The translations under genes and the position numbers were made by a program. Of a stretch of DNA of 64,000 bases, positions 32,609-42,462 are shown in pieces. Every line of letters starts with the position of its first letter. Position 1 is the first letter of the stretch. Source of the stretch: an uncultured Bacilli bacterium (GTDB taxonomy: Bacteria; Bacillota_I; Bacilli_A; RF39; UBA660); contig CAKPJN010000001.1 of the NCBI GenBank assembly GCA_934162665.1, forward strand, positions 52,834 through 116,833, read 5' to 3'. Under the pieces are notes generated by a model. It did no database searches. It worked only from the letters and a program-made list of their open reading frames with translations, and had not been told where the DNA came from.

Positions 32609-32660
32609 TTAGTAAATTTTAATTAAAAAGTCGGGAGATTGTTTCCGACTTTTTGTTAAT

Positions 32661-33770
32661 TTAAATTGGTATTCTTAGAGTTTGACCTACGCTTAAAATA
32701 TTAGTAGTTAAATTGTTTATTGATTTTATAGTATCTACTGTTGTATTAAATTTTCTAGCTATAGAATAAAGGGTATCTCCTCTTAATACTGTATAATAGG
32801 AATAATTACTAGTTGATGGAATTGTTAATACCTGACCTATTGCTAAGGTATTAGTAGTTAAATTGTTTATTGATTTTATAGTGTCTACTGTTGTGTTGAA
32901 ACGACTAGCTATGGAATAAAGAGTATCTCCTCTTGCTACTGTATAATAGATAAAATTTTCAATTGCATTTCCTTTAGTATTTACTAGTAATTTTTGACCT
33001 ACTATTAAAGTGTTTGTAGTTAAATTATTTAATCTTTTTATCTCGTCGACAGTAGTATTGAATTTTCTAGCAATAGAGTATAGTGTATCTCCTCTTACTA
33101 CAGTGTAATAGATTTCTTCCATATTTTCATTGTTGTTTTTTTCCTTTATTAGTAATCTTTGACCTACTGTTAAACTATTACTAGTTAAATTATTTAATCT
33201 TTTTATCTCGTCGACAGTAGTATTAAATTTTCTAGCAATAGAGTATAGTGTATCTCCACTTACTACTGTATAATAATTATTAGTTATTTCTTCTTTTATT
33301 ACACAATTATTTAAATTGCCATATAGTTCGTTAATTTTTTTCCAAGTCTCATTTGTGGTTGTTCCTGTTGCGGTTAATCCATTGTTATATTGAAATCTTT
33401 TAACAGCCAGTTCTGTTTCTTTGTCATATTTTCCGGTAATGGCTTTGGTATAATATAATAGTACATTTAATTTTTTTTGTAATTCGGATACATCATTACC
33501 TGATGATCCATAACTTAAATTTGGATAGGTTATTCTATAAAATCGTGTATTTTCTGTTTTTTCAAATAAAAGATTCCATGTATTAGTATCTACTATTCCA
33601 GTTTCTTTTAGACCATATCGTTTTTGAAATTCTTTAACACCTAACTCTGTTGCTTTACCAAAACTTCCTGTAATAACAGGGTTATATAGGTTTAATAATT
33701 TTAATTTTTCTTGTAAAATTTTTACATTATCTCCGGTACTTCCAATTTTTAATTCTTCCTCTAATATCAT
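32661..33770 (-). CDS. LysM-repeat peptidoglycan-binding protein with two PG_binding_1-like domains
   Basis: Two N-terminal PG-binding repeats (GxxVxxLQxxL...TGxxDxxT) then four near-identical LysM motifs (YYTVVxGDTLYSIAxKFNTTVD...). RBS GAGGTG is 6 nt before ATG 33770. Confidence 0.7.
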   Translation of the reverse strand: MILEEELKIGSTGDNVKILQEKLKLLNLYNPVITGSFGKATELGVKEFQKRYGLKETGIVDTNTWNLLFEKTENTRFYRITYPNLSYGSSGNDVSELQKKLNVLLYYTKAITGKYDKETELAVKRFQYNNGLTATGTTTNETWKKINELYGNLNNCVIKEEITNNYYTVVSGDTLYSIARKFNTTVDEIKRLNNLTSNSLTVGQRLLIKEKNNNENMEEIYYTVVRGDTLYSIARKFNTTVDEIKRLNNLTTNTLIVGQKLLVNTKGNAIENFIYYTVARGDTLYSIASRFNTTVDTIKSINNLTTNTLAIGQVLTIPSTSNYSYYTVLRGDTLYSIARKFNTTVDTIKSINNLTTNILSVGQTLRIPI

Positions 33771-33854
33771 CGTTAACACCTCATTAAATTATAGATAAAT
33801 AATTTTAATATATTCATAATTTTAGAATATACTTAAATGAAATGGGGAATTGAT

Positions 33855-35066
33855 ATGCCGGCAGGTTACTTAGTAGTTAGTGTATATTCTGATACAATTG
33901 CTAACCCAATTAGTGGAGCTACAGTTAGAGTTTTAAAGGATGGTAAACATACTATTACTGTTACTACTGATGAGGATGGAAAGACTAGTCCTATTACATT
34001 AAATACAGTTAGTGAGAGTTATACAGAAGAAGAACAAAAAACTGTTAGACCGTATGAAACTTATGATATTGAAGTTGAAGCTTTAGGTCTTACGCCAACT
34101 AAAATAGATGGAGTTCAAATATTTCAGAATATTACATCTAATCAGAATGTTTATATGAGGAGTATAGATGAAGTTAGTGATCAAGATGTTTCTACTATTG
34201 GTCCAAATACTTTATGGGGTGATTATCCTGATACTGTTTCTGAAGAAAAAAGTAATGAGGAGATTCAACCTTATATTTTAAAAAAAGTTGTTGTTCCGGA
34301 ACAAATAATTGTTCATGATGGAATACCATCTAATAGATCAGCACCTAATTATACTGTTGATTTTGTAGATTATATTAAAAATGTTGCGAGTAGTGAAATA
34401 TATCCAACTTGGCCTATAGAAACAATAAAGGCTAATGTTTTAGCAATTATTTCTTTTGCTTTGAGTCGTATTTATACTGAATGGTATCAAAGTAGAGGGT
34501 ATGATTTTACTATTACATCAACTACTACTTATGATCAAAAATATACTAAGGATGGAACAACTTTTGATACGATTTCTGCTATTGTAGATGATATTTTTAA
34601 TAATTATATTAGACGAGGGTATAGACTGGAACCGCTTTTAGCACATTATAAAAGTGATACTACAGAACCAGGATATATGAGTCAATGGGGCTCTAAATAT
34701 TTGGGAGATCAAGGATATTCTGCACTTGGAATTCTTAGATATTATTATGGAGATAATACTGATATATTTGAAGCTGATTTATCTAATGAGTATCCAACTT
34801 CTTTTAGTGGAGAATTGAGGGAAGGTAGTTGTAGTCAGGAAGTATATATTTTACAAAATCAACTAAACTATATAAGGGGAAGTTATCCTGGATTGCCAAT
34901 GATTCAAAATCCATCTGGGTTATTTGATAGTCAAACAACAGCTACGGTTAGAAAGTTTCAAAGTGTATTTAATCTTCCAATTACTGGTGTTGTTGATTTT
35001 GGTACATGGTATAAGATAAATTATATTTTTACTGCGGTAGAACATTTAGCAGAGAGTGTATATTGA
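33855..35066 (+). CDS. SpoIID/LytB-domain protein with carboxypeptidase-regulatory-like N-terminus and C-terminal PG-binding domain
   Basis: Motif NVASSEIYPTWPIETIKANVLAIISFALSRIY matches the SpoIID/LytB core; the C-terminus LQNQLNY...TGVVDFGT matches PG_binding_1. Confidence 0.6.
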   Translation: MPAGYLVVSVYSDTIANPISGATVRVLKDGKHTITVTTDEDGKTSPITLNTVSESYTEEEQKTVRPYETYDIEVEALGLTPTKIDGVQIFQNITSNQNVYMRSIDEVSDQDVSTIGPNTLWGDYPDTVSEEKSNEEIQPYILKKVVVPEQIIVHDGIPSNRSAPNYTVDFVDYIKNVASSEIYPTWPIETIKANVLAIISFALSRIYTEWYQSRGYDFTITSTTTYDQKYTKDGTTFDTISAIVDDIFNNYIRRGYRLEPLLAHYKSDTTEPGYMSQWGSKYLGDQGYSALGILRYYYGDNTDIFEADLSNEYPTSFSGELREGSCSQEVYILQNQLNYIRGSYPGLPMIQNPSGLFDSQTTATVRKFQSVFNLPITGVVDFGTWYKINYIFTAVEHLAESVY

Positions 35067-35317
35067 TAGGGTTAACAATCATTTGTTAATTCCTTTTTTA
35101 CTTATAAGGAAAGTTATCCCTATTTTTATAAAAAGCAATATAGGTTATTGATGAACAATTGTTTTAAATATATAATAAAATTGTTCTTGTAAAAATGGAG
35201 GTGTTTTAAGTATAATAGCAAGATAATACCAATATTGTATGAATATAAACAAATAAGATATCAATGTAATTATAGATACCGTGTATGGATAATTAAAATA
35301 CATTATCAAAGTTAGTA

Positions 35318-35480
35318 AGAAATAAAAAAAATAGATAGATTATTAATAGATGAGTTAGTAGAAGATATTGTTATTGATGAAAATCAAGATGTTAAAATAA
35401 TTTTTAAATGTGAAGATAAATATTTTGAGGCTCTAGATTTTATAAATCGTAATAAATATGATATAATAAAAACAATTTAG
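35318..35480 (+). pseudogene. remnant of a large serine recombinase 3' end
   Basis: Encodes ...LIDELVEDIVIDENQDVKIIFKCEDKYFEALDFINRNKYDIIKTI*, homologous to the C-terminus at 38830-38974; no upstream ORF. Confidence 0.6.
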
Positions 35481-35583
35481 ATTATGAATTTATTGTAATA
35501 TATCAAATAAAAAACTAGAAAGGATGTTTTTTTTTATGAATAAAAATGGCAATGAAAAAAAAGTTAACTAAGGTCGTTATTAA

Positions 35584-35609
35584 CTGGTAAGTGGGGAGTT
35601 ATGAAAAAC
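35584..35609 (+). repeat. copy 1 of the GGTAAGTnGGGAGTTATGAAAAAC repeat
   Basis: Near-identical to 39120-39146; its core GGAGTTATGAAAAAC also occurs at 39241-39257. Confidence 0.6.
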
Positions 35610-41155: not shown

Positions 41156-41170
41156 AAGACAAATTATAAA

Positions 41171-41280
41171 AAAGGAAGTGATTAAAATGGATATGTACCA
41201 AAAAAGAAAAATTAGAGCAGAAAAGAAATATAATGATAGTCAAAAAAGTTTTTCAAAAGTCCCCATTTCGTGCTTGATTA
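41171..41280 (+). repeat. about 100-bp direct repeat copy 2; contains small ORF MDMYQKRKIRAEKKYNDSQKSFSKVPISCLITIYATPLENPYK (41187-41328)
   Basis: Homologous to 39021-39126; the two copies bracket the DUF1016 + phosphoesterase gene pair. Confidence 0.6.
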
Positions 41281-41472
41281 CGATTTATGCAACACCTTTA
41301 GAAAATCCTTATAAATAAAGGCTTTGAGAAAAATTTGATTTACATATTTTAATGAAAAAACAATAATAATAACTAAAAAATGGTTGTTTTTTATAAAATA
41401 TATGTAATTTTAGGTTAGGGATTAAGTACTTGATTATGACGTGCAACCCTCTCTCATAGAAAGGTGTTAAAA

Positions 41473-41739
41473 ATGAAAAAATATGATATAGATAAAATAA
41501 TAGAAAAATATAAAGATATGGATTTAAATGATATAAATCCTAATGATATACCTGATATAAATGAAATAAAAATCGATAAAAGAAAACCTAAAGTAGAAAG
41601 AATGTTGGATTTCTTATTTCAAGTAAAAAATTCATATGTATTTAAAATAAATGGACACTTAGTTCAGATTGAATTTACAAATAATGTCAAAATCGCAGAA
41701 GATTGTTTAACTAATGTTTTATCTAATTTATATAGATAA
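41473..41739 (+). CDS. hypothetical small protein (89 aa)
   Basis: RBS AAAGGTG before ATG 41473; precedes the methyltransferase by 15 nt. Confidence 0.4.
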   Translation: MKKYDIDKIIEKYKDMDLNDINPNDIPDINEIKIDKRKPKVERMLDFLFQVKNSYVFKINGHLVQIEFTNNVKIAEDCLTNVLSNLYR

Positions 41740-41753
41740 TCGAGGTGATATAA

Positions 41754-42458
41754 ATGTATAGTAAAGAATTTTGTGATATCTATAATGAATATGGATGGGA
41801 TTATTTTAGTTTAACAATGGGGGATGCTATATTAAAATATTTAAATAAAAATAATATTAAGATAAAACAACATTTAGATTTGGGATGTGGTGTTGGTACT
41901 TTATGTGATTATTTTTTTAAAAACGGAATAAAAACAACTGGATTAGATATTTCTCCTGATATGATAAATATATGTAAAAATAGAAATGAGGATATAGCCT
42001 TTTTTGTAGAAGATATGACCCAATATATTTCAAATGAAAAATATGATTTGATTACTATAACTTGTGATGCTATAAATCATATTTTAGAAGAAAAGAAATT
42101 TGATAGGATTATTTCTAATGTTTCTAAAATGCTAAATACATCAGGATATTTAATTTTTGATATAATTGATAAGGATAAATTAATTTTAAATAGTAATATC
42201 ATCAGTAATAGGAGCGAAGATATTAAAGTTCATTATTATATTACAAATAAGGGAGAATTAATTAATACTAATATAAAAGTAATACAAAATAATGAAAAGA
42301 TATATGAATGTGACGTATTAGAAAAATTATATACTATAGAATTTATTAAAAAAATATTGTTAAAATATAATTTAGAAATAATAAAATCAGAAAATAGTAT
42401 TTTAAACGAAAAACAAAGAATCGAAGATAAAATATATTTTATTTGCAAAAGGAAGTGA
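41754..42458 (+). CDS. class I SAM-dependent methyltransferase
   Basis: Motif I LDLGCGVGTL and post-I GLDIS in a Rossmann-fold methyltransferase arrangement. Confidence 0.65.
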   Translation: MYSKEFCDIYNEYGWDYFSLTMGDAILKYLNKNNIKIKQHLDLGCGVGTLCDYFFKNGIKTTGLDISPDMINICKNRNEDIAFFVEDMTQYISNEKYDLITITCDAINHILEEKKFDRIISNVSKMLNTSGYLIFDIIDKDKLILNSNIISNRSEDIKVHYYITNKGELINTNIKVIQNNEKIYECDVLEKLYTIEFIKKILLKYNLEIIKSENSILNEKQRIEDKIYFICKRK

Positions 42459-42462
42459 TAAA

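Follow-up and report, generated by a model that had tools for sequence, protein, structure and literature searches.

A probable fossil stack of inserted units at the start of rbgA in an uncultured Bacilli bacterium

Why does 9.8 kb of DNA separate lepB from rbgA (ylqF) in this uncultured Bacilli bacterium? In the window, i.e. the whole stretch of 64,000 nucleotides analysed, lepB ends at 32608 and rbgA, which codes for an essential ribosome-assembly GTPase, starts at 42463. Features of the locus are collected in Table 1. rbgA is intact, aligns over its full length to 80 relatives, and forms both the target gene and the right flank. The interval itself is accessory: one relative (L050) has an empty site, with 105 bp between the two genes, and seven others carry at the same place 3.9 to 9 kb of almost wholly unrelated genes. 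The first-pass annotation had described LysM and SpoIID-like genes, two large serine recombinase (LSR) remnants, repeats and cargo between lepB and ylqF, and we recovered all of them at the same positions. It took the block for an accessory insertion, expected an empty site in relatives, and derived the block from serine-recombinase elements that had lost their recombinase and become fixed; all of this held up. Its expectation of a distinct composition stood in part. Genes in the 35.07-42.46 kb region depart weakly from the rest of the window in GC (0.234 vs 0.264, p=0.03) and have a higher AT skew (p=0.013), but their GC3 is equal. Its flanking att-like direct repeats were not found on either side of the 9.8-kb block.

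Table 1. Features between rplS and rnhB (positions in the window)
Feature	Position	Strand	Basis or remark
rplS	31730-32074		left conserved flank side
lepB (signal peptidase I)	32096-32608	+	left conserved flank; Peptidase_S26, 1.3e-45
terminator-like hairpin	32624-32655	+	separates convergent lepB and LysM genes
LysM x4 + PG_binding_1 x2 wall-binding protein	32661-33779	-	Pfam
SpoIID-like + PG_binding_1 protein	33837-35066	+	Pfam; PHROG phrog_28785, 2.2e-67
recombinase remnant 1	35317-35480	+	last 49 codons of LSR (35322-35468)
J1	35528-35619	+	decayed orphan rbgA leader ending ...GTCGTTATTAACTGG; TG 35585-35586
o90, 90-aa ORF	35679-35951	+	no family match
o203	36211-36822	+	conserved family, 60+ clusters, uniform length
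o198	36840-37436	+	conserved family, 39 clusters, uniform length
first 30 codons of 147-aa gene	37506-37595	+	
recombinase pseudogene 2	37590-38974	+	tblastn vs P0001, P0003, P0006
J2	39037-39186	+	orphan leader ORF MDMYQKRKMRAENKKNNNQESFSKVPISW, 39037-39126; TG 39121-39122
YhcG/DUF1016 PDDEXK nuclease	39277-40287	+	putative unit C; Pfam YhcG_C 7.4e-64
membrane-anchored metallophosphoesterase	40310-41155	+	putative unit C; Pfam Metallophos 3.3e-16
J3	41187-41338	+	orphan leader MDMYQKRKIRAEKKYNDSQKSFSKVPIS; TG 41271-41272
DUF6870 protein	41464-41739	+	putative unit D; Pfam
class I SAM methyltransferase	41754-42458	+	putative unit D; Pfam
current attR-like site	42450-42492	+	element-borne RBS + rbgA codons 1-10 (MNENKTNINW)
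rbgA (ylqF)	42463-43323	+	TIGR03596 GTPase_YlqF, 327.6 bits vs cutoff 208
rnhB	44784-45425		

The interval contains three copies of a repeat (35556-35619, 39018-39191 and 41168-41341). Chance would give 0.00 copies of its 28-mer core in the window, which has two. Each copy is a junction, J1 to J3, in which an orphan rbgA leader, i.e. an RBS and N-terminal codons ending in ...W, breaks off at a TG and passes directly into the left end of the unit that follows. J1 belongs to repeat family D4; its leader has a 3' end identical to the rbgA leader of relative L095 and is followed by a type-a left arm, TAAGTGGGGAGTTATGAAAAAC. The J2 leader, homologous to the RbgA N-termini of L097 (MDMYQKRE...NINW-YPGHM) and L095, is joined to another type-a left arm, GTAAGTTGGGAGTTATGAAAAAAC. 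J3, 77% identical to J2, runs on into a cassette left arm of type b, CTTGATTACGATTTATGCAACACC...CCTTATAAATAAAGG. The orphan leaders of J2 and J3 encode MDMYQKRK...SFSKVPISW, and RbgA proteins encoded beside related recombinases start with MDMYQKREQRKK...NKVNINW-YPGHM (L097), MKKNTNPENQKSLSKVVINW-YPGHM (L095) and MKEKEEEKVFPKVRLSW-YPGHM (L101); the YlqF family profile begins at RbgA residue 8. The break is exact at the conserved ...AACTGG core, and since the base directly after TG varies in 11 of 34 junctions, TG is taken as the crossover; it is presumed to lie at 42490-42491 in the attR-like site that now starts rbgA. This site is the sole strong match of a left-arm HMM in the window (E=2.6e-08, or 4.8e-09 in an 11.6-kb sub-region; next E>=0.09). 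On the other hand, the common site is only modestly dyad-symmetric (13/32 positions); the whole of J2 is dyad-symmetric (inverted repeat I17), and J2 alone folds better as DNA than shuffled sequences (z=-2.35).

We consider it likely, with a probability of about three in four, that at least four units entered the 5' end of rbgA one by one and that the 35.3-42.5 kb region is the fossil stack they formed. Each would have entered by site-specific recombination at the same site, whose target core, ...AATATCAAC-TG-GTATCCAGG, is placed at rbgA codon W10, and not in the lepB-ylqF intergenic space assumed earlier. The right end of an incoming unit would bring a replacement RBS and N-terminal leader, and recombinase-bearing units would add an outward promoter that overlaps the stop codon of the recombinase and probably drives rbgA, so that the gene would stay expressed. 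The new right junction would resemble the original target, allowing the next unit to enter between the previous one and rbgA. Every round would leave behind an orphan leader, fused at TG to the newer unit's left arm, hence J1, J2 and J3, with the newest unit presumably nearest rbgA. The oldest unit, A, would survive only as a recombinase 3' end; unit B would comprise o90, o203, o198 and recombinase pseudogene 2; C, the YhcG nuclease and the phosphoesterase; and D, the youngest, the DUF6870 protein and the methyltransferase. A P'-arm HMM, made of cassette left arms from junctions in relatives, scores J3 best (E=2.8e-15, at 41271-41338), then J2 (E=0.004) and, weakly, J1 (E=2), which reads as a gradient of decay away from rbgA.

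The first-pass annotation had instead seen a single insertion between lepB and ylqF, of one integrative element that then decayed in place; on that reading the repeats would be internal duplications. Such an element would also make an accessory block with dead recombinases, and duplication could produce recombinase 3' ends and two junction repeats that are 77-79% alike. This seems improbable to us, as each repeat combines an rbgA leader cut at TG with a left arm conserved in other species, three units hold unrelated cargo, the block has no outer att repeats, and in relatives units likewise follow one another in series, with as many as 8 junctions.

We then consider the two recombinase remnants of the proposed stack, whose 3' ends (35317-35479 and 38811-38973) are 79% identical in nucleotides. 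Remnant 1 is 67% identical to residues 419-467 of the LSR P0001 (tblastn). Pseudogene 2 retains Pfam Recombinase (4.7e-21) and Zn_ribbon_recom (5.6e-10) domains at 37776-38624 and a DUF4368-like tail at 38624-38974, and intact relatives align over 37590-38962. It lacks the N-terminal ~70 residues, catalytic serine included, and has an in-frame stop (37671-37673) and a frameshift near 38600-38612. Judged by sequence, both LSRs are dead, probably killed by ordinary deletions, the stop codon and the frameshift, which would have frozen the array, now fixed in the species. Because both copies are dead and the array is the same in all same-species contigs seen, we regard it as a fossil.

Both remnants end with outward promoter-like sequences: TTTATA-17-TATAAT (TG-extended) at 35439-35467 in remnant 1, identified by a promoter scan, and TTGACT-17-TATGAT / TGATATAAT at 38928-38961 in pseudogene 2. 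Of 11 recombinase genes or remnants examined, 10 have the TGATATAAT box at or just past the stop codon; the eleventh, in L097, has TGTTATAAT in its place. Transcription may not run unbroken through the whole stack, since o90 is followed by a terminator-like hairpin.

Cargo differs from unit to unit. The segment 36033-37596, covering o203 (taken there as 36238-36822), o198 (36849-37436) and the start of the 147-aa gene, is 91.6-91.8% identical in nucleotides to loci of L117-L119, in another genomic context and with no junction sites; o203 and o198 may therefore not be the original cargo of the second recombinase. Comparison with L119 places the fusion of the 147-aa gene to pseudogene 2 at a GATAAT microhomology (37590-37595). 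Unit B is a deletion product. AF2 models of o203 and o198 (pLDDT 77 and 88) had no fold match in the PDB. The YhcG nuclease matches the PADLOC candidate defence system PDC-S02 (8e-132) and is a candidate defence gene; its neighbour, the phosphoesterase, matches the NCBIfam YaeI-like family at 7e-38, below the cutoff. DUF6870 recurs with a second gene as a cassette in L100. Further left, the LysM and SpoIID-like genes are accessory at the rbgA locus and may or may not have arrived by the same route. No homologue of the LysM protein was found within 10 kb of rbgA among 80 relatives; one with 47% identity adjoins the o203/o198 pair in L117-L119, and a 48% homologue of the SpoIID-like protein is near that pair in L117. 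A leftmost junction was sought near 35230-35290, where the candidate was not significant.

Related gut bacteria have 1-8 co-oriented junctions at the rbgA site, bounding cassettes of ~1 kb (median) with mostly one gene each, and these integron-like arrays look live. Among 78 genome loci, 35 have 1-7 extra copies of the rbgA leader upstream, all co-oriented and each followed by the conserved left arm. In an independent metagenome scan, junctions were present at 115 of 120 loci, as many as 8 at a single one, and no locus had them on both strands; wherever the locus contained rbgA, all were upstream of it and co-oriented (30/30). Two genomes, L099 and L100, are 100% identical over a 1500-nt stretch (BroN-recombinase-methyltransferase-leader) that runs to ...ATTAACTGG. 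What comes next is rbgA in L099, but in L100 it is the left arm of a DUF6870-NUDIX cassette. Their rbgA bodies are just 55% identical, and the two loci seem to form a natural before/after pair. One might suppose that nothing moved, the leaders being copies of the rbgA start made by tandem duplication in place or by gene conversion, and the genes between being ordinary lineage-specific ones. L061 could be read so: its beta-lactamase-like gene lies between 72-bp repeats of rbgA codons 1-24, which run past the usual TG break, and therefore not every insertion follows the canonical pattern. We nevertheless find this explanation hardly credible, in view of the constant break point with its conserved left arm, of the identical recombinase unit joined at the same base in L099 and L100, and of the same cassettes in different species, at 90-95% nucleotide identity where rbgA has 67-72%.

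Which enzyme inserted the units of the proposed stack? Co-location points to the LSR whose two remnants lie in it as the probable catalyst of the insertions and of cassette movement. The window remnant gave 148 matches, mostly of 405-408 aa. In all 8 places examined, which involve 7 proteins in varied genomic backgrounds and include one ICE that carries a type IV secretion system, the recombinase gene is on the same strand as an RbgA-type GTPase gene and 0-2 genes upstream. Recombinases in L057 and L087 agree with this association, and by these neighbourhoods the family appears tied to rbgA. The work might instead have been done by a tyrosine recombinase, such as an Int of the Tn5252/Tn5253 type or a host Xer whose gene lies elsewhere, with the serine recombinases as cargo or as a co-resident element. 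Tyrosine-integrase ICEs do have a proven attB at the 5' end of rbgA (PMC6079316, PMC4701971), and a conserved xer-like gene is found ~6 kb downstream in this clade. Furthermore, attP-like and attB-like sites have left arms that hardly differ over ~45 bp, as in tyrosine-type direct repeats and unusually for canonical serine integrases. Most arrays have no serine recombinase nearby: one is found within 10 kb in 3 of 81 genome loci (window included) and 5 of 120 metagenome loci. However, none of the arrays examined had a tyrosine recombinase, whether within it or at its head, and no Phage_integrase-family gene was called in the 2-10 kb flanks of the LSRs at rbgA. The leader directly follows the serine-recombinase stop codon in the window, L095, L097 and L101, and the variable base after TG fits a 2-bp crossover. 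Taken with the 8/8 association, this makes a tyrosine enzyme unlikely.

By analogy, the closest counterparts of the rbgA stack would be SCC composite islands, integrons and Tn5253. In staphylococcal SCC/SCCmec, which uses Ccr LSRs at rlmH/orfX, a serine-recombinase family is likewise dedicated to one end of one housekeeping gene, the element re-supplies that end, short integration-site repeats separate tandem elements, and many units (pseudo-SCC) have no recombinase of their own; the likeness is drawn from target use and unit layout. SCC tandem cassettes are rich in defence genes and mobilised in trans (bioRxiv 10.1101/2023.03.17.533233). SCC, however, uses the 3' end of rlmH, whereas here the 5' end of rbgA (codon 10) is used, by units that are far smaller in the relatives and more numerous per array, each apparently bringing a new RBS and N-terminal leader for an essential gene.

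Integrons move promoterless cassettes with the tyrosine recombinase IntI at attI and attC sites. They resemble the rbgA arrays by their co-oriented one-gene cassettes anchored at one site, by cassette content (GNAT, NUDIX, defence candidates, a beta-lactamase-like gene), by the same cassette in different hosts, and, presumably, by the newest cassette being next to the anchor. In contrast, rbgA arrays have no IntI and no recurrent gene at the heads examined, their sites are leader plus left-arm junctions instead of folded attC hairpins, their anchor is inside an essential gene, and the associated serine recombinase itself rides on cassettes.

Streptococcal ICEs of the Tn5253/Tn5252 family integrate at the same end of the same gene, with 83-bp repeats covering its first 20 nt (PMC6079316, PMC4701971). 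There too, repeats span the upstream region and first codons, RbgA keeps its N-terminus, and the integrase is at the element end adjoining rbgA (PMC6079316, PMC4701971), but these are single large ICEs with tyrosine Int/Xis, where we find many small units and a serine recombinase. Finally, in ICESt1/ICESt3 and their CIMEs, site-specific accretion likewise occurs at a regenerated target, and recombinase-less derivatives between att sites decay into fixed islands; those systems differ by their tyrosine integrase, their target (fda 3' end) and their few units, which are not single-gene cassettes.

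The window has a low GC content (about 25%), and the majority of its genes lie on the plus strand. In the species-representative genome collection, the relatives closest to it are MAGs of uncultured gut bacteria labelled 'Bacilli', 'Tenericutes' or 'Erysipelotrichaceae', and none of their RbgA proteins exceeds 77% identity to that of the window; metagenome contigs of the window's own species carry the identical locus. Pfam and NCBIfam bear out the identities of rplS, lepB, rbgA (ylqF) and rnhB, and the features named in the first-pass annotation for the block between lepB and rbgA are all present where it had placed them (see table). 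The repeats it had noticed are real as well: the 3' ends of the two recombinases share 79% identity, and a junction repeat occurs in three copies, its 28-nt core being found twice in the window when none is expected by chance.

Features of the lepB-rbgA interval and of its surroundings (J1-J3, junctions made of an orphan rbgA leader and the left arm of the next unit; units A-D, stacked insertions)
Feature	Position	Place	Remarks
Acyl_transf_3 gene	30421-31530	between trmD/orf145 and rplS	GC 0.196 (very low), negative AT skew
LysM/PG_binding protein (minus strand) and SpoIID-like/PG_binding protein	32661-35066	between lepB and rbgA	
Four LysM modules	32668-33275		~131-nt tandem repeats, 150-165 nt apart, 71-92% identical
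Second recombinase fragment (remnant 1)	35322-35468	between lepB and rbgA	last 49 codons only
J1	35528-35619		
Small ORFs without assigned function (o90, o203, o198)	35679-35951, 36238-36822, 36849-37436	between lepB and rbgA	
AT-rich hairpin, then T run (AAGGTATAGAAAAAATATACCTTTTTTT)	35989-36018	after the 90-aa ORF	
Broken large serine recombinase (recombinase 2)	37590-38974	between lepB and rbgA	
Extended -10 boxes	35439-35467, 38928-38961	recombinase stop codons	
J2	39037-39186		
YhcG/DUF1016 nuclease, then metallophosphoesterase	39277-40287, 40310-41155	between lepB and rbgA	
J3	41187-41338		
DUF6870 protein, then SAM methyltransferase	41464-41739, 41754-42458	between lepB and rbgA	
Unit A (oldest)	35317-35480 plus J1 leader		all that survives
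Unit B	35587-39122		o90, o203, o198, truncated 147-aa gene, recombinase 2
Unit C	39123-41272		YhcG and phosphoesterase
Unit D (youngest)	41273-42491		DUF6870 and methyltransferase
Zinc-ribbon membrane protein, 438 aa	43407-44723	between rbgA and rnhB	homologue only in locus L019 (44%)

That the interval is accessory, as had been proposed, is confirmed by an empty site in L050 (L-numbers denote loci from relatives or metagenomes), with the two genes 105 bp apart. lepB lies within reach of rbgA in eight relatives, seven of which have 3.9-9 kb in between; the roughly 60 ORFs of these seven intervals are nearly all on the rbgA strand, and almost none is common to different species. Many MAG contigs stop less than 300 bp upstream of rbgA, an effect that repeated or strain-variable DNA has on assemblies. 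Base composition sets the block apart only weakly: GC is 0.234 against 0.264 (p=0.03) and AT skew is higher (p=0.013), but GC3 is identical. A search for att-like direct repeats shared by the two ends of the block, at lepB and at rbgA, found none; contigs with the exact RbgA or phosphoesterase protein included no empty or partly filled variant; and a phage and plasmid search with the block gave no near match, only scattered YhcG hits and a Campylobacter remnant. The idea of a decayed, fixed integrated element is partly borne out: the block is a dead, fixed fossil, since all same-species contigs carry the same dead array (one of them with an additional stop codon), but it is a stack of several units at a cassette site anchored in rbgA. 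Several short-read contigs of the window's species stop inside or just before the LysM repeats. The trmD-rplS gap varies from about 0.6 to 2.6 kb in relatives, so that the Acyl_transf_3 gene may mark a second small insertion spot, and rbgA and rnhB overlap or abut in some relatives and lie up to about 3.4 kb apart in others, so that the downstream side of rbgA is variable too.

The nature of the junctions emerges from the relatives, where additional copies of the gene's start precede the real rbgA. Each of them consists of a ribosome-binding site and ATGAATGAAAATAAAACTAATATAAACTGG, and continues not into TATCCAGG (codons 11 onward) but into a conserved arm, TTGATWACRATTTA...CCTTATAAAATAAGG. 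With a leader HMM, 1-7 extra copies were detected in 35 of 78 loci, all co-oriented, and 76 of the 77 arm HMM matches were on the rbgA strand. The break always falls at ...AAYTG, followed by G in 23 cases, T in 4, C in 4 and A in 3; this variability suggests that crossover takes place at the TG dinucleotide. The integration target is codon 10 of rbgA, not rlmH/orfX, and the repeat spans the ribosome-binding site to that codon. In the window, the arm HMM matched the right half of J3 (E=2.8e-15), J2 (0.004) and J1 (2), and J2 and J3 each have a small ORF, MDMYQKRK...SFSKVPISW, as their left half. Real RbgA proteins beside related recombinases begin with MDMYQKREQRKK...NKVNINW-YPGHM (L097), MKKNTNPENQKSLSKVVINW-YPGHM (L095) or MKEKEEEKVFPKVRLSW-YPGHM (L101), and GTCGTTATTAACTGG is common to J1 and L095. 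Likeness to these N-termini, together with the arm matches, indicates that the junction repeats are orphaned rbgA leaders, each severed at the W codon and fused to the left arm of a unit that came in later. Across the clade, RbgA N-termini are a mosaic of several leader types on a conserved body, and the YlqF family profile starts only at residue 8.

Dyad symmetry of the common site is modest and is given no weight here. J1, J3 and the L097 site did not outperform shuffles in folding (z -0.78, +0.84 and +0.73), only J2 reaching -2.35. A candidate for the leftmost junction, with the native promoter, near 35230-35290 and to the right of the LysM and SpoIID-like genes, seemed likely on inspection but was rejected (p 0.09-0.16 against shuffles, no HMM match). 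In L061 (2861-3863), a lone class A beta-lactamase-like gene sits between 72-bp direct repeats of rbgA codons 1-24; this repeat extends past the usual TG break, which places the insertion outside the canonical junction pattern.

A before/after pair is provided by L099 and L100, which share the same recombinase protein. Left of the junction, 1500 nt are 100% identical in both, up to ...ATTAACTGG; beyond this point L099 runs into rbgA, and in L100 a DUF6870-NUDIX cassette begins with its left arm and closes with its own leader, joined to rbgA. Without gaps, the rbgA bodies share only 55% identity, so the hosts differ. The pair defines a unit's right end to the exact base, and it demonstrates horizontal transfer.

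We delimited 65 cassettes in 31 loci of the genome collection, besides unit D of the window, most of them without a recombinase. Their median size is 986 bp (range 370-3932), 39 of the 65 hold one ORF, and 93 of 102 ORFs point the same way as rbgA. Cassettes are shared between species at 84-95% nucleotide identity, against 67-72% for rbgA. Among 83 cassette proteins, RhuM is found eight times (PADLOC candidate PDC-S05), GNAT 5, NUDIX 4 and HTH 4 times; KilA-N, NADAR, Bro-N, YhcG and one beta-lactamase-like protein were also found. An independent scan of metagenome contigs for the junction pattern returned at least 120 stretches. Among the matches listed, the arm was present in 115 of 120 stretches; 66 of 120 had at least two junctions and at most eight, in no case on both strands; all 30 rbgA-bearing loci had every junction upstream and co-oriented; and only 5 of 120 carried the recombinase.

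Homologues of the window's recombinase remnant (n=148), mostly of 405-408 aa, have Resolvase, Recombinase and zinc-ribbon domains. For seven homologues in eight places examined, the gene was in all eight on the same strand as, and 0-2 genes upstream of, an RbgA-type GTPase, in surrounding genomes that differ. In L095, an ICE that encodes a type IV secretion system ends in the recombinase, followed by rbgA, and L057 and L087 agree with the arrangement. From this association we infer that the serine recombinase catalyses cassette movement. A tyrosine enzyme would fit the long shared left arm as well; in the arrays, a profile derived from the Xer-type recombinase of the window, of limited reach for divergent phage-type integrases, found no tyrosine recombinase, only a conserved xer-like gene downstream of topA. 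Nor, across 48 loci, did any protein family recur in the 3 kb preceding the first junction.

Both copies in the window are dead. Recombinase 2 retains the Recombinase domain (PF07508, 4.7e-21) and zinc beta-ribbon (PF13408, 5.6e-10) over 37776-38624 and is 66% identical over 337 aa to P0001, an intact protein of a relative. It aligns to such proteins only from about residue 72 on (residue 72 of P0003, another intact relative), the resolvase catalytic domain with the serine nucleophile (PF00239) being lost, and P0003 residues 1-71 have no hit anywhere in the window. An in-frame stop (37671-37673) and a frameshift near 38600-38612 break the reading frame. The missing N-terminal catalytic domain and the fusion of the 5' end to another gene identify it as a pseudogene. 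The fusion partner is a 147-aa gene, joined at its codon 30 and intact in L117-L119; the joint is a GATAAT microhomology, which indicates ordinary deletion rather than site-specific recombination. Self-deletion at an internal pseudo-site (AAAATAAATTG) was rejected for the same reason, and because the recombinases of L095 and L101, likewise 5'-truncated, are cut at other positions.

Because the right junction regenerates a target-like site, we infer that the newest unit adjoins rbgA, an order that fits the decay gradient J1 > J2 > J3. The window's units (1.2-3.5 kb) are larger than the cassettes of relatives; unit B itself arose by deletion and may combine two units. None of 80 relatives has either the LysM or the SpoIID-like gene near rbgA; homologues of both adjoin the o203-o198-147-aa trio in L117-L119, amid cell-wall genes and without junction sites. 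This hints at a functional module of five genes, possibly rearranged in the window.

Of 11 recombinase genes or remnants examined, among them both window remnants and those of L095, L096, L097, L099, L101, L057 and L087, 10 have an extended -10 box, TGATATAAT, at or just past the stop codon, and L097 has TGTTATAAT in its place; TTGACT often stands 17 nt ahead. A general promoter scan carries no information in DNA this rich in AT (72 hits against 87.7 expected), so that promoter evidence is restricted to boxes conserved in position at recombinase stop codons. This box is plausibly an outward promoter, built into the recombinase gene end, for the leader and rbgA, and would explain why recombinase 3' ends survive deletion. 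Inside unit B, the AT-rich hairpin after o90, missed by the terminator scan because of its few G-C pairs, may stop read-through.

As for cargo, YhcG is a PDDEXK nuclease that matches the PADLOC candidate single-gene defence family PDC-S02 at 8e-132, next to a membrane-anchored YaeI-like phosphodiesterase scoring below the family cutoff. The methyltransferase is a generic class I enzyme with a weak match to mad2 (3.4e-15), and DUF6870 recurs as first gene of two-gene cassettes. The o203 and o198 products belong to conserved families of uniform length, without match in Pfam, PHROG, PADLOC or NCBIfam; their AF2 models (pLDDT 77 and 88) had no match below E 0.9 among PDB folds. No validated anti-phage defence system was found among the cargo, only candidate systems. 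The surviving genes of the block are probably kept for their own functions: our best guess is defence-type or modification functions for units C and D, and action together with the wall-binding proteins for o203 and o198.

The nearest known parallels each share part of this picture. Tn5253/Tn5252-type ICEs integrate at the rbgA 5' end, preserving the N-terminus, via tyrosine Int/Xis, with a repeat of 63 nt upstream plus 20 nt of rbgA (PMC6079316, PMC4701971). As there, the target takes in the upstream region and first codons of rbgA; however, the window has neither tyrosine Int/Xis nor a conjugation module, and the type IV module of L095 accompanies a serine recombinase. SCC elements are tandem cassettes at one gene end that large serine recombinases move, and they include defence cassettes lacking a recombinase (bioRxiv 10.1101/2023.03.17.533233). 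Like them, the window has tandem units parted by short integration-site repeats (J1-J3), some without recombinase, but SCC uses the rlmH/orfX 3' end via CcrAB/CcrC rather than rbgA codon 10. Arrays of single-gene, co-oriented cassettes are an integron hallmark, and the relatives' cassettes are likewise compact, mostly single-ORF and co-oriented; unlike in integrons, no IntI-type tyrosine recombinase with attI was found at the array head, and the junction sites are not attC-like imperfect hairpins. A combination of Tn5253-, SCC- and integron-type traits was not found described: a full-text literature search of incomplete coverage, which leaves novelty unproven, returned no serine-recombinase cassette arrays at rbgA.

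We give about even odds (roughly 0.5) to the reading that uncultured low-GC gut Bacilli hold a second, independent invention of the integron idea. A serine-recombinase platform would capture single-gene cassettes serially within the first ten rbgA codons, the window being a frozen example and a Campylobacter resistance plasmid holding a fragment. Each cassette would supply a fresh ribosome-binding site and leader, so that the essential rbgA anchors the array and forces its orientation, and cassettes would travel between species as discrete units, in trans. If the serine recombinase does move them, the system would be a platform for gene capture that does not belong to the integron family and has its anchor in an essential gene of ribosome assembly; to our knowledge, integrons are essentially absent from this bacterial group. 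It would explain the frequent MAG contig breaks just upstream of rbgA in the clade, the mosaic RbgA N-termini, and the spread of small defence-candidate or resistance-type genes (RhuM, YhcG, GNAT, NUDIX, beta-lactamase-like) among gut Bacilli. The main value of the fossil stack would then be as a pointer to a clade-wide system. The natural target, the WYPGHMAK coding region, is short and highly conserved, so that these recombinases may be useful site-specific integration tools.

Other serine recombinases were met in the loci compared. Upstream of a junction in L057, a small integrative element (934-5465) encodes a Rep-like protein, an FtsK/TcpA-like translocase and a 558-aa serine recombinase of another subfamily (24% identity range to the window's remnant). 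In L114-L116 (848-3859), a 521-aa serine recombinase and a 218-aa gene directly precede a 198-aa Transpeptidase+PASTA fragment, which may reflect insertion into a penicillin-binding-protein gene; in this species o203 lies alone between ftsW and glmS. Finally, the conjugative Campylobacter jejuni plasmid pAR-0413-1 (L113, NZ_CP044170.1) has a remnant of the same element type as the window's copies at 5001-5330, inside an aph(2'')-Ih / sat4 / aph(3')-IIIa / aadE resistance cluster. It comprises a recombinase 3' end, a TGTGATATAAT box and a MDMYQKRKMRKEK... leader ending ...CTTAACTG, and is 82% identical to the window's copies.
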